This document shows positions 35,312 through 63,986 of a DNA stretch of 64,000 nt, piece by piece (the stretch's first letter is position 1; the number at the start of each line of letters is the position of its first letter). The stretch is taken from the IMG/VR virus record IMGVR_UViG_3300010149_000008. One strand, written 5' to 3'. This DNA is from a virus (lineage: Duplodnaviria; Caudoviricetes). Made by a program: the position numbers and the translations under genes. The notes under the pieces were generated by a model. That model worked only from the letters and a program-made list of their open reading frames with translations. It was not told where the DNA came from and made no database searches.

Positions 35312-35926
35312 TTAAATTAAGTCTTCTATCTTTTGTATGCCAAAACTTCTTAACTCTTCCGGTTGAACTTCAATATCAATAAACTCTTTTTTAGCTTTAT
35401 GCTCTTTAAAGTCACCACTTTCTAGACCTAACTTATGAGGTACACCTTCTAAATTAGCAATATTTCCGTTAAGTAAATCAGATTGATCAATATAGATTTT
35501 TACATGATGATCGAGTTTAGAACCTTTTGTTCTCAAATGAAATCTTACTTTGTCTTTAGAAGCAGAGCCAAATCTCATCCATGCAATACCTGTGCTGTTA
35601 AAAGTATCTAAAAGATTTGAACATTCCATAAAATTTTCTGAATTTGTATCAGAAGATAATATTTCTTCGTTTAAAGTATTGAGTATGTTAAGCCACACTA
35701 TATTATCTTCTGACACTTTTGTTTTTGCCCATGCTCTTCCTCTGCCTGAAAACATTGCTTTTATACTTGCATTGCTTGTATGACTAATGTTTAGATGACA
35801 ATTGATTGCTTCGTTAAATATTTCGCGAAGTAATGTAAGTTTAATTTCGTGCTGATCTTCTTCAAGCTTAGAAATAATATTATGTACACCAGGAAAAATA
35901 ATTTCTTTGATTAATTGAATGTCCAT
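35312..35926 (-). CDS. Paralog family A member 1
   Basis: FSGRGRAW, GIAWMRF, GSKLDH. Confidence 0.75.
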   Translation of the reverse strand: MDIQLIKEIIFPGVHNIISKLEEDQHEIKLTLLREIFNEAINCHLNISHTSNASIKAMFSGRGRAWAKTKVSEDNIVWLNILNTLNEEILSSDTNSENFMECSNLLDTFNSTGIAWMRFGSASKDKVRFHLRTKGSKLDHHVKIYIDQSDLLNGNIANLEGVPHKLGLESGDFKEHKAKKEFIDIEVQPEELRSFGIQKIEDLI

Positions 35927-35992
35927 TTGTTAATCACCTCCATAGAAATATTATATTTAAAAATTAAACTTTTTACATGCATAAACAACTAA

Positions 35993-36175
35993 TTAATTTT
36001 TTCCAGAAATTAAATTTTCTGCATATTCTTTGTTGCATTTCATACATAGATTATCGCAATTATTACAACCGTAATACTCATGAAAAGCATATTTGCATTC
36101 ATGAAAATAAAAGTCATATTCCTTTTTACACTTATCACACTTAAGATTGTTTTTCATTTTTCTTAACACTTTCAA
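35993..36175 (-). CDS. Small Cys-rich protein
   Basis: CxxC motifs. Confidence 0.5.
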   Translation of the reverse strand: MKVLRKMKNNLKCDKCKKEYDFYFHECKYAFHEYYGCNNCDNLCMKCNKEYAENLISGKN

Positions 36176-36332
36176 TTATGTTTTCTTCTAAATCTAAAAT
36201 TTGAACTTCATCAATGTAAGTTACTATTTCATAGTCGTTGTTTTTAGTTCTAAACAAAGAAGTTATTTGAATGTCTAGGTCTAAGACTAGTTGTGCAAAT
36301 TTTTTTAACTTTAAACTTTCTTTTTCAATCAT
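36141..36332 (-). CDS. Hypothetical protein
   Basis: ATGA overlap. Confidence 0.6.
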   Translation of the reverse strand: MIEKESLKLKKFAQLVLDLDIQITSLFRTKNNDYEIVTYIDEVQILDLEENIIESVKKNEKQS

Positions 36333-36595
36333 CTTTTATTTCTCAATAGCTCTCTAACTTCTTTTTGTGTCTGTGACATTTTGCCAACCATTCTTGCACC
36401 CGGCTTTTCTATTACATTTGATACTTGGCCAGATCTTAAACCACCATTAACTAAACAATAAAAATCAAAATAATCTATCTTAGTCTCTTCATCTCTCCAT
36501 AGATTTACAACCTCACCAAATCCATAGTTTTGATCTGCCCCTTTTAGTGAAACCCATAACATATCGCCTAGTTTAATTTCAGTAGTTTTCGACAT
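36329..36595 (-). CDS. Hypothetical protein
   Basis: Co-oriented ORF. Confidence 0.7.
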   Translation of the reverse strand: MSKTTEIKLGDMLWVSLKGADQNYGFGEVVNLWRDEETKIDYFDFYCLVNGGLRSGQVSNVIEKPGARMVGKMSQTQKEVRELLRNKR

Positions 36596-36911
36596 AAGGC
36601 AAATGATTTTCTGGTTTTGAAAAATATTTATGCAAGTGATATTCGTTTACAATACAAGCTTGATTTGTCTTAAGTCTTGTCAAGCTAATCCTGACCATCC
36701 TTGTCGCACCTTTAGTTTCTAGTACTTCGCTTCCTAGATAAACAAAAGGTTCGTTTAACTTAATAGGTAACTTTTGCCCGTCTAATCTTAGCTCTCTTTT
36801 TGCCGGCATAAAATAATTACCTTTGTTCCTAAGATAAACAAAGGATCCAGAGCCTGATTTGCTATTAAAAATAATAATGTCGCCTTTTCTTATTTCAACG
36901 TATTTAACCAT
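36579..36911 (-). CDS. Hypothetical protein
   Basis: Promoter and AGGAG upstream. Confidence 0.7.
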   Translation of the reverse strand: MVKYVEIRKGDIIIFNSKSGSGSFVYLRNKGNYFMPAKRELRLDGQKLPIKLNEPFVYLGSEVLETKGATRMVRISLTRLKTNQACIVNEYHLHKYFSKPENHLPYVENY

Positions 36912-36930
36912 TATTGTCTCCTTTTTATAT

Positions 36931-36959
36931 ATTATAACAAAAATTTTTACTATTTACAC
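36931..36959 (-). promoter_or_regulatory. Promoter (GTGTAA-N17-TATAAT)
   Basis: Recurrent motif; overlaps the last codons of 36950-37879. Confidence 0.75.
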
Positions 36960-37879
36960 GTATTAACTAACTCATTCGTTGCCCAATCAACATTTCTATA
37001 TTTATTTGAAAAATATACACCGTATCCTGAACTGTTAGGTTGCTGGATTTTCTTATCCAATACTTCCTCTTTTGCAAAACCGATAAACATAGTAAGTAAA
37101 TTATCTGGCAGCCTAACAGTCTTATGCAGCCTTTTAACATTTACTTTAAAGATTTCTTCTTTGATGTTGTAATGGCTTGGCCAGTTGTTTTCAACAGCTT
37201 TGTAAAGGCATTCTAAAAATATGCTTTGTGTTTTTTTGTCTTCTGATATATTTTCTAAATTTCTATACTTTAAATATTTTATTATCCTTGCTATTGTAAA
37301 AGGAGAGTCTGAAGAGCTTAGTTTAAGTATTTTTTTTGCATCACACTCTAATGCTTCTTCTTCATAATAAACTATGTAATCATTTTTTTCTTTTAAAATT
37401 CCATACTTACAGTTTAATACGTCAAAAGAGTTAAAACATTCTTCGATATTTTTGAAGAAAAATTTATTTACCAACTGTACTTTTATATCTTTTATTTCTG
37501 AAATGTTATCATCGAAATAGTCAAAATTTAATGCAAAGTCGCTAGTGTAACAATTTAATTTTGGATGTTCAAAAACGTTATCATAGTGACTTAAATTTTT
37601 CATATGTCCTGATATTTTTTTATATGCAAGATCATATTCGTTTTTTGAGTTGCAAAATAAGTCTATGTCCCCTGAGCTGTAATATTCTGATAGGTAATTT
37701 ATAATTCTATTAGTCTTTTTATTATTGCTATTTATATCAAAATGTGCATGACAAACTTCTCTTGCAAAACCTCCAGCTATCCAAAAGTTTGAGTCAAATG
37801 CTATTTCAATAACTGGGTTTCTAAATATATTATTTAACTGTTCTTTGTGTATACCTTCGACAATAAAAGACTTGATCAT
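36950..37879 (-). CDS. Nucleotidyltransferase (Pol beta / CCA-adding head superfamily)
   Basis: WIAGGFARE, GDIDLF, SFDVLNC. Confidence 0.7.
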   Translation of the reverse strand: MIKSFIVEGIHKEQLNNIFRNPVIEIAFDSNFWIAGGFAREVCHAHFDINSNNKKTNRIINYLSEYYSSGDIDLFCNSKNEYDLAYKKISGHMKNLSHYDNVFEHPKLNCYTSDFALNFDYFDDNISEIKDIKVQLVNKFFFKNIEECFNSFDVLNCKYGILKEKNDYIVYYEEEALECDAKKILKLSSSDSPFTIARIIKYLKYRNLENISEDKKTQSIFLECLYKAVENNWPSHYNIKEEIFKVNVKRLHKTVRLPDNLLTMFIGFAKEEVLDKKIQQPNSSGYGVYFSNKYRNVDWATNELVNTCK

Positions 37880-62569: not shown

Positions 62570-62596
62570 GATTACTGCTTTTTGCGGGGGCTGGAG

Positions 62597-62866
62597 TCAA
62601 TTATTGTTTAGATACATATTGCTGAACTTTATCTGCATCTCTGTAGGGACATCGTACGAGTCTTTACTGACTGCGAGCGGGATATCGCCGAACGTGTCGA
62701 AAGCTTGGATGACTGATAAGACTGTTGCGACATTGGGGATAACGCGCGTTCCGTCTTTAAGATAGTGAGGAATGATAAAGCGATAATGTTGAGCACGTTC
62801 TATGATGTTATCTTTTTTAGAAGCTGATAGACCTTGTGGTATTGACCACGTTGCGAAGTCAGACAT
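62597..62866 (-). CDS. Hypothetical protein (start revised to MSDFATW)
   Basis: Promoter at 62910-62939 and AAAGGA RBS lie inside the longer ORF. Confidence 0.7.
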   Translation of the reverse strand: MSDFATWSIPQGLSASKKDNIIERAQHYRFIIPHYLKDGTRVIPNVATVLSVIQAFDTFGDIPLAVSKDSYDVPTEMQIKFSNMYLNNN

Positions 62867-62909
62867 AGATATATCCTTTGTGTGTTGGTATGTATAGCCT
62901 AGAGAGTAT

Positions 62910-62939
62910 ATTATACTTCTAGGTAGTGTCACTGTGCAC
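62910..62939 (-). promoter_or_regulatory. Promoter (GTGCAC-N18-TATAAT)
   Basis: Recurrent motif. Confidence 0.7.
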
Positions 62940-62992
62940 GTCACGTGACGACGCAGCGGGTGGTAGTTATGCCGGGAAGATGAGTTATATTA

Positions 62993-63006
62993 AAGGCCGT
63001 AGCCTT
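62993..63006 (-). terminator. Terminator hairpin with C(UACG)G tetraloop
   Basis: AAGGC-TACG-GCCTT just after the 63012 stop. Confidence 0.65.
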
Positions 63007-63011
63007 AAGAC

Positions 63012-63986
63012 TTAGCTGTTAGCGAAGATGTCTTCATCCATGTCTTCGATATCAAAGTCGTTTAAGTCATCGGCAAGATCTTCAAGAGTTAATACTTCTT
63101 CAGTTTCGGTCGCGACGTCTTCAGTTGTTTGATCAGCTTCAGCTTCTGTTTCTTTTGCTTCAGGCTTCGCGATGACTTCTAGCTTTTTTGAGTGAGGAGT
63201 CCCATCTAGAGTTTCGATAACATTTTCTAGGTCAGCTGTTGGGATATAATGTAGATGTTTCGGGTGATCATCAGTTGCGCCGTTAATGCGAACTTCAAAT
63301 GCAGCGGATTGAACTCCATTATCTAGACGAGGGCCTGAAAATCTGATCCATGCATAACCAGCTTCTTTAATGAATGCTCTGTAATTAGATGTATCTGAGT
63401 TTTCTTCATCAAACTTATTTAGAGTTTCTTCGATATCGCTGATTTGTAGCTTTACCCATTTAGCTCCGCGTCCTCCGAACTGAGCTTTGAGGACTGATCG
63501 CCAATCTGTACCATCAGCTGCCTTAGCTGTTCGACCGCAGAGATGTTTGATATCAGATTTGATTAGATTATCTAGATGACGTTTGAATTCAGTTACCTTT
63601 GGAGATCCGCCGTCTTGAGTGAACTGATTGAAAAGTTGAATGATAAGATCTTGTGAGCTCATGTTAACCTCATTGTTATTAGGAGTTGAATTAATTGAGT
63701 TATCCATGTTATTGTCCTCAGGATTGATTGGTTGGGGTTGTTGAGTTATTGTATCATTGTTGTTTTCTGTTTTACACGCTTCGATTATTTCCCAGTCATA
63801 TACCAGCCAACCATGTTCATCACTCAGTGCGTCAGTGATTTGATAGCTGTCAACTGCAGTTGGATCTTCGAAGTATTCAGTAAGGTCTACTACGATTGGG
63901 ATACCGTTTTCTTCAGCAAACTTATCATGTTCCTCAGTGTTATCAGGGTTAGGTAAGTCAAAGTCCCAGATGATTTGAATATGCAT
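63012..63986 (-). CDS. Paralog family A member 3, fused in frame to an upstream small acidic module
   Basis: FGGRGAKWVK, GYAWIRF, FEVRING..DHP; internal promoter and RBS; acidic tail. Confidence 0.75.
   Translation of the reverse strand: MHIQIIWDFDLPNPDNTEEHDKFAEENGIPIVVDLTEYFEDPTAVDSYQITDALSDEHGWLVYDWEIIEACKTENNNDTITQQPQPINPEDNNMDNSINSTPNNNEVNMSSQDLIIQLFNQFTQDGGSPKVTEFKRHLDNLIKSDIKHLCGRTAKAADGTDWRSVLKAQFGGRGAKWVKLQISDIEETLNKFDEENSDTSNYRAFIKEAGYAWIRFSGPRLDNGVQSAAFEVRINGATDDHPKHLHYIPTADLENVIETLDGTPHSKKLEVIAKPEAKETEAEADQTTEDVATETEEVLTLEDLADDLNDFDIEDMDEDIFANS
63748..63777 (-). promoter_or_regulatory. Intragenic promoter (GTGTAA-N18-TACAAT)
   Basis: Recurrent motif inside the 63012 ORF, upstream of GAGG-ATG starts. 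Confidence 0.65.

Follow-up and report, generated by a model that had tools for sequence, protein, structure and literature searches.

Paralogous early genes that lack an explanation are a common feature of large phages, and large uncultured marine phages consist mostly of genes without an assigned function. The early phage proteins T7 Ocr and T4 Arn are acidic DNA mimics, and acidic tails of the SSB (single-stranded DNA-binding protein) type end in hydrophobic residues. In predicted fold, the described protein that scores best, if weakly, against the family reported here is the antitoxin VapX; VapX and VapY are SH3-like beta-barrels with helical additions of the same kinds as those of the phage domain (PMC11980593), and both block the VapD nuclease. 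The present locus lies in a stretch of 64,000 nucleotides of phage DNA (IMG/VR record IMGVR_UViG_3300010149_000008), hereafter called the window, which encodes four paralogous proteins that share one small domain, each belonging to a separate orthologous group, together with an acidic module, X, that is fused to one of them and also encoded next to another.

Paralogues, acidic module X and promoters

The initial annotation of the window had singled out three minus-strand open reading frames (ORFs), at 35312, 37929 and 63012, as dispersed paralogues with ordered motifs and charged tails. Pairwise BLASTP comparison showed that the three indeed share a domain of ~115 aa (E = 3e-9, 4e-12 and 1e-11; alignments of ~115-125 residues with 28-34% identity), and these E-values discount chance similarity. 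Each ORF carries all four motifs, GRGxxW(A/V)K, G(I/F/Y)AW(M/I)RF, F(H/E)(L/V)RxxG(S/A)xxDH and L(E/G/D)x(V/T)P, and the segments C-terminal of the domain are charged as described, with net values of -3 in P0001, +2 in P0002 (a basic stretch followed by an acidic helix) and -19 in P0003. A fourth member had been overlooked. When a hidden Markov model (HMM) of the three domains was run against all six-frame ORFs of the window, it retrieved the ORF 34182..34748 (E 6.5e-6), which lacks the GRG and DH residues and is strongly basic (+13). An alignment of nine orthologues of this ORF, compared by hhalign with an alignment of the other members from which all such sequences had been left out, gave 96.0% and E 3.9e-9 over 142 columns, with a tail motif in common. 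As judged by this profile match and by conserved synteny (see below), the ORF is a divergent member of the family. The genes, domains and module X of the window are as follows, the letters A to D denoting the clades described below.

34182..34748, minus strand: D-type gene, 188 aa, fourth member (clade D)
34413..34748, minus strand: domain of the D-type protein, residues 1-112
34798..35022, minus strand: standalone module X gene, 72-74 aa, net charge -14, pI 4.1, homologous to P0003 residues 1-80
35312..35926, minus strand: B-type gene, P0001, 204 aa (clade B)
35417..35779, minus strand: domain of the B-type protein, residues 50-170
37929..38477, minus strand: A-type gene, P0002, 182 aa (clade A)
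38142..38471, minus strand: domain of the A-type protein, residues 3-112
63012..63986, minus strand: C-type gene, P0003, 324 aa, in-frame fusion to module X (clade C)
63174..63506, minus strand: domain of the C-type protein, residues 161-271
63762..63986, minus strand: module X part of P0003, residues 1-~75

A maximum-likelihood tree of 67 domains resolved four clades (support 97/95 for A, 100/99 for B, 86/92 for C and 100/99 for D), and each of them contains one window gene grouped with orthologues from other phages. The duplications are therefore older than this phage lineage, and the earlier description of the family as "expanded under selection" is misleading; on the evidence of the tree, these are ancient, stably retained and non-redundant paralogues rather than products of a recent expansion. 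Lineage-specific duplicates were seen in clade C only, and related loci have two C-type genes 3-7 kb apart. A relative of 239.5 kb, which is complete and bears terminal repeats, carries five copies on a single strand, from 206.8 to 237.1 kb, and the family's small-gene array lies within the last ~33 kb of this genome; a relative of 211 kb also has five. The gene order A, B, X, D on one strand recurs across loci, with D placed after B and X in 8 loci. The four types differ in architecture, domain charge and tail, as listed here.

Type A: domain N-terminal; median domain charge +2; tail with a basic linker in the window copy, then a W-x-x-F-L motif
Type B: domain after a helical hairpin of ~45 aa; median domain charge +1; tail motif F-G-I-Q-T-L-E-D
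Type C: domain after an N-terminal extension; median domain charge -1 (-4 in the window copy); acidic tail of -6 to -28, median -14
Type D: domain N-terminal; domain charge +8 to +14, pI ~9.7; a distinct tail of its own

In the window copies, the basic linker of P0002 leads to a conserved motif E-L-x-x-W-x-x-F-L-K at the C-terminus, and P0001 has the hairpin N-terminal of its domain and an E-E-L-x-x-F-G-I-Q motif C-terminal of it. Only the C-type tails are acidic (net -10 to -28) with a hydrophobic end (L, F or I), which is not the case for the tails of types A, B and D.

P0003 is composed of X (residues 1-~75), a low-complexity linker, the family domain and the tail. Its N-terminal ~75 residues are thus a separate acidic module and not part of the family domain, a distinction that the initial annotation did not make. 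Standalone homologues of X, small genes of 62-135 aa, occur in most related loci, and across loci X has a net charge of -10 to -24 and a pI of ~4.1. In all 8 loci with a detected D, a gap of 33-64 nt separates X from the D-type gene downstream of it; X adjoins C-type genes at other loci, and the fusion of X to a C-type protein is found in the window and in three more clusters (P0007, P0015 and P0186). Fusion in some genomes together with adjacency in others is a classic sign of a functional link, and by this sign X is probably linked in function to the D- and C-type proteins. X itself had no match in Pfam or the Protein Data Bank (PDB), and its 146 database relatives are unnamed or carry generic labels; one label from JGI, 'Cu/Ag efflux pump CusA' on a 95-aa relative, looks erroneous. 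The ESM Atlas gave no usable feature match, and its only structural rows for P0003 were viral hypothetical clusters over residues 1-75, that is, over module X. Between the B-type gene and X lies a DUF3310 protein gene (35050-35274, minus strand), and a gap of matching size is present in many relatives.

Regarding promoters, the motif GCRTGT-N17-21-TATAAT occurs at 15 sites in the window, as compared with 0.19 in shuffled sequences. The minus strand has twelve of these sites, within the small-gene array and spanning 34768-62492, and the plus strand has three. The recurrent form is GCGTGTA-N18/19-TATAAT, the upstream hexamer of which is unlike the usual TTGACA. A copy of this promoter upstream of each of the three genes had been claimed at the outset; this holds for the genes starting at 35926 and 38477, and the D-type gene has one as well. 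The first ATG of P0003, by contrast, has only 14 nt of the window upstream of it (it has a ribosome-binding site of its own, AAAGGA), and the site associated with this gene has one mismatch and lies inside the ORF.

34768..34798, minus strand: strict promoter motif 5' of the D-type gene, at the 3' end of the X gene
35950..35980, minus strand: strict promoter motif 5' of the B-type gene
38520..38551, minus strand: strict promoter motif 5' of the A-type gene
63748..63779, minus strand: one-mismatch promoter-like site GCGTGTA-N19-TACAAT within the P0003 ORF
63012..63707, minus strand: possible nested C-type product of 231 aa from Met94, with promoter-like site, GAGGA and ATG

The internal site was the only one added when the motif was relaxed (13 sites in the window for the relaxed motif versus 0.06 in shuffles), and 3' of it GAGGA stands 7 nt before an in-frame ATG (Met94, at 63707). 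The combination of promoter-like site, ribosome-binding site and in-frame ATG makes it plausible that a 231-aa product starting at Met94 is made beside the 324-aa fusion, giving nested long and short forms. A product of 231 aa would be of typical size for unfused C-type relatives (193-261 aa), and a methionine is present at the equivalent position in the fused relatives P0007, P0015 and P0186. Related phages have in common the element GTGTAA-N17-TATAAT; a loose GTGTAA-type form stands upstream of 41 of 47 genes of types A, B and C in relatives versus 8.8% of background windows, and the strict motif is rare there (upstream of 4 of 55 family genes). Since the family genes have their own copies of a recurrent promoter and are located in a one-strand array of small genes, early expression is plausible.

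Distribution and predicted fold

The claim that the family is unrecognised withstood all searches. Pfam-A, PHROGs v4, NCBIfam 20 and PADLOC-DB 2 contain no family for the four proteins and returned sub-threshold noise only (E at least 0.088, 12-13 bits). No PDB chain was matched significantly in sequence by profiles built from 3, 43 and 111 sequences (best E 0.49-0.66), and in the phage records of GenBank (~50,700) there was no match by tblastn of P0003 and P0002 or by blastn of 4 kb. Hence, the three proteins align significantly with one another and match no well-characterised domain in these libraries. Among 185,579 prokaryote species, represented by one genome each (GTDB contigs), 131 pattern matches were obtained, none of which was confirmed. 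An exhaustive profile search of 1.84 billion protein representatives, on the other hand, yielded 143 at E <= 0.001, nearly all of them 100-370 aa long, and 97 at E <= 1e-10. Long matches of the deep search (SH3_5, Tudor and TPR repeat proteins) were rejected as relatives, their scores coming from repetition, and the extra regions of P0109 and P0143 had no Pfam match. One metagenomic relative, P0004 (326 aa), has two tandem family domains in one polypeptide. An annotated search gave 219 relatives from Tara, ENA, JGI and Logan marine data, without any Pfam domain and with "hypothetical protein" as the sole descriptive name. In IMG/VR the family is present at 35 loci, and the family database places the window proteins on a contig of 256,231 bp. 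To judge from these searches, this is a genuine orphan family, limited to an uncultured lineage of marine jumbo phages.

Structure prediction followed by a fold search, as the initial annotation had proposed, provided a confident model and weak matches only. The AlphaFold model of P0001 built with 43 sequences (pLDDT 82) has three N-terminal helices followed by the domain, and a model of the domain alone, built with 111 sequences, reached a pLDDT of 96.5 and a pTM of 0.87. The latter consists of a helix, a strand, two helices, three strands, a short helix and a well-ordered extended C-terminal segment with P...L-x-L-E. Foldseek returned nothing at E <= 0.001, either for the full-length model against the PDB and BFVD or for the domain model against the PDB. 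Nor did VIA-align, in wide and re-rank searches, give any Z >= 5, and it should be underlined that models without a match typically reach a best Z of 7-8 with this aligner. Small barrels of the SH3-like kind account for almost all rows spanning the domain, and every score is weak: VapX (Z 4.9), DUF1653 (4.8), UvrD/PcrA Tudor (3.5 for UvrD), NusG KOW (3.4), Hfq (3.2-3.9) and WYL (3.4-3.7), besides CAP-Gly, SH3b, Mfd, CarD, LSm, Rof, chromo and BAH. As these scores are below the noise level, even the label SH3-like is provisional. The model is described here as a probable SH3-like barrel with elaborations, for which no relationship to a known family could be demonstrated. The proteins form a new family, and their fold is probably a new elaboration of a widespread small barrel.

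The best row, VapX (PDB 6zn8), aligns over 62 of its 66 residues with an rmsd of 2.6 A, at a score under the noise level. As a provisional barrel, the model resembles VapX in its shortened last strand and the helix after strand 4, and VapY in the helix between strands 1 and 2 (PMC11980593); like these two, the phage proteins would be standalone small binding proteins. It differs from VapX in showing no sequence similarity (8% identity only) and in being ~50 residues larger, owing to the N-terminal helix, the two-helix insertion and the conserved C-terminal extended segment. The second-best row, DUF1653 (PDB 3be3; 64 of 78 residues, rmsd 3.3 A), is itself of no known function and has no sequence relation to the family, as there was no PF07866 match. 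Tudor/KOW barrels that contact RNA polymerase (UvrD/PcrA 7egs and 5dma, the Mfd RID 6ac6, CarD 4l5g and the NusG KOW 1m1g) aligned over 53-60 residues with Z 3.1-3.5, and in a Tudor-repeat protein a G-R-G-x-x-W-Y-K stretch aligns with the first motif of the family (hhalign 11.7% over 20 columns); the phage domain has no Pfam match. The tentative likeness to Sm, Hfq and LSm proteins consists in an N-terminal helix followed by a small bent sheet, and in the existence of multi-paralogue sets as for eukaryotic Sm proteins. Nearly the whole Hfq chain is aligned (62-65 residues, again below the noise level), and the Sm-like WYL domain appears as well, whereas the Sm1/Sm2 sequence motifs and a Pfam LSM match are missing and the large helical insertion is not found in Sm proteins.

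Candidate functions

Over 111 members, complete or near-complete conservation is confined to G-R-G, W, W-x-R, F, G, P and E. The charge of the domain varies from -5 to +14 between clades with the invariant residues unchanged. This pattern suggests that the conserved residues serve as a scaffold and that function has diverged on the surfaces and tails. The SH3-like barrels that dominate the fold lists are binding modules, and this weak theme would agree with both roles suggested by the initial annotation, nucleic-acid binding and inhibition of host enzymes. We tentatively favour the reading that the proteins are non-enzymatic early binding proteins of a jumbo phage, built on one scaffold and differing by clade in charge and tail motifs, although this could well prove wrong. 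The scaffold would be a small beta-barrel of the SH3-like kind that starts with a helix and has two further helices inserted between strands 1 and 2; it would have been duplicated long ago into the four orthologous groups A-D, each of them kept by every related phage. The invariant residues (G-R-G...W, W-x-R, F, G and P...E) would hold the fold, and specificity would reside in clade-specific surfaces and tails. For the strongly basic type D, the most likely ligand would be nucleic acid or its acidic partner X. Type C, with X, would most likely mimic nucleic acid or an acidic tail and thereby occupy host proteins that handle DNA or RNA, a role suggested by its acidity, its long acidic tail with a hydrophobic end and its being fused or adjacent to X. 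Types A and B may dock onto other partners through their short conserved C-terminal amphipathic motifs. What the analysis establishes is the homology, the paralogy, the synteny, the linkage to X, the presence of a promoter for each gene and a confident model; the early timing, the non-enzymatic nature, the binding roles and all targets are inferred. X and the C-type tails are comparable to T7 Ocr and T4 Arn in size, charge and presumed early-gene setting, a comparison of these properties and not of sequence or fold. Several points speak against the favoured reading. The invariant Arg and Trp could equally form a common ligand site instead of holding the fold. No structural match reaches the aligner's own noise level, and hhalign gave only 0.8% with an SH3_5 protein and the above 11.7% with the Tudor repeat protein, over no more than 20-23 columns. 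Moreover, the GenBank phage search found no cultured phage that carries the family.

Alternatively, all members might be direct binders of nucleic acid, either Sm-, KOW- or WYL-like or analogous to SSB with regulatory acidic tails, acting on phage or host RNA or single-stranded DNA (ssDNA). The invariant Arg and Trp with a conserved Lys on strands 1-3, the D-type domain with its pI of ~9.7 and the basic linker of type A fit this possibility, as do the weak fold rows for Hfq, LSm, WYL bound to ssDNA and KOW, and the SSB-like tails. However, the SSB tail feature is seen in C-type members only, the C-type domains are acidic, the B-type domains about neutral, and the conserved core presents no common cationic surface; the wide range of domain charge between clades thus disfavours one common electrostatic function in nucleic-acid binding. 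Nor was an OB-fold SSB chain present among the matches listed in the fold searches, which does not in itself exclude an unlisted family, and there was no LSM, KOW or WYL match in Pfam. We consider direct binding by all members possible but doubtful. The paralogues might also be subunits of one hetero-oligomeric complex, resembling a mixed Sm/LSm ring, that has X as an accessory and has a task in the replication, transcription or RNA handling of the phage. Each related genome has kept all clades, at a stable copy number of five, the charges are complementary (D basic versus X and C acidic), the tandem domains of P0004 hint at domain pairing, and the helix preceding the bent sheet is where the Hfq and Gemin6/7 alignments begin (model residue 1-2). 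Against this, the fold scores do not rise above noise, and the genes have a promoter each and are spread over ~30 kb rather than forming one operon. A complex of this type is in our view unlikely, and so, to the same degree, is its more specific form, in which the four to five paralogues and X make up an Sm/SH3-like barrel complex acting early on RNA or DNA, the X-C fusion and the unfused C-type protein being two forms of one subunit.

The high rank of VapX, the helical decorations that VapX and VapY have in common with the domain (PMC11980593) and the tight acidic-basic gene pair with its short gap of 33-64 nt would also agree with X-D and X-C being inhibitor-target pairs, of a toxin-antitoxin or anti-defence kind, in which one partner blocks a host defence nuclease or a toxic activity. 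The VapX score is below significance, though, and the D-type gene has its own promoter between X and D. In a Pfam scan of ten neighbouring ORFs the only matches were DUF3310, RNaseH_like and a weak Trypsin_2, with no toxin domain of the VapD/Cas2-like or any other kind, and PADLOC had no match either, so that this explanation seems improbable, slightly more so than a mixed complex. An enzymatic role, for example in nucleotide or phosphate handling, could be imagined from the Ser/Asp/His of the G-S-K-x-D-H loop or from the G-R-G loop, as both G-R-G and G-S-x-x-D-H are invariant in the three window copies of types A, B and C. Across the 111 members the Ser/Asp/His loop is not invariant, Asp and His not even nearly so, and neither GRG nor DH is present in clade D; this, the small size of the domain (~110 aa) and the lack of any match to an enzyme fold disfavour an enzyme, which we regard as very unlikely. 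ADP-ribosyltransferase activity (R...S...E) was likewise discarded, as the domain is smaller than such an enzyme would need to be and none of the lists contains this fold. Finally, some large phages package paralogous acidic small proteins, and the window also has large unannotated proteins that are possibly structural, which would be in keeping with virion-associated or injected internal proteins rather than early regulators. The genes, however, lie in an array of small genes with their own promoters, the block of large genes being on the other strand, and they resemble no structural PHROG; a virion role is very improbable too.

The family of early binding proteins that we tentatively propose is now delimited: it comprises four orthologous groups, its domain has been modelled with high confidence, an acidic partner is linked to it, and its genes have a promoter in common. 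What was a "hypothetical protein" becomes a set of five proteins, of contrasting charge and with pairings predicted, that is open to experimental test. Should the proteins turn out to be adaptors in host takeover, or a mixed barrel complex, they would represent a new scaffold among phage early effectors; otherwise the family would still be a useful marker of this jumbo-phage lineage. It has no bearing on any long-standing question.

Surrounding genome

The window belongs to an AT-rich phage (~30% GC) with genes for GroEL, a PurZ-like synthetase, DNA ligase, UvdE and a Dam-type methylase, and with five tRNAs. The GroEL-type chaperonin is encoded at 3559-5217 on the plus strand (PHROG 5725, E 4.5e-137). 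The plus-strand ORF at 9881-12361 encodes a protein of 826 aa, the sole GenBank-phage similarity of which covers ~175 residues with 28-29% identity; the matches are a cytidylyltransferase-like protein of Microcystis phage Mel-JY01 and an uncultured phage of 462 kb. Such a distant match as the only one points to a phage lineage without a close cultured relative. Also on the plus strand are a UvdE UV-endonuclease (17570-18538) and a C39-like cysteine peptidase (30116-30943), and an RNaseH_like protein is encoded at 33429-33902 on the minus strand.

The ORF at 19673-20872 (plus strand) matches the PHROG for 2-aminooxy adenylosuccinate synthetase (PurZ-like, E 6.5e-78); its two neighbours (18599-19669 and 21067-22233) are an ORF of dehydrogenase type and an unknown PHROG. 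It could reflect a pathway for a modified adenine (a 2-aminoadenine genome) or simply be a homologue of PurA. A D12-class N6-adenine DNA methyltransferase (43726-44562, minus strand, E 4.8e-38) lies next to the tRNA cluster and overlaps an upstream ORF of 236 aa without a Pfam match (44546-45256, minus strand), with which it may form a restriction-modification pair. The tRNA genes themselves, at 45448-48992 on the minus strand, are Leu-TAA, Thr-TGT, Arg-TCT, Met-CAT and Lys-TTT. At the end of the window, the segment 62001-64000, which contains the C-type gene, has a GC content of 0.40 as compared with ~0.30 elsewhere, and the sign of its GC skew switches while the genes still lie on the minus strand.

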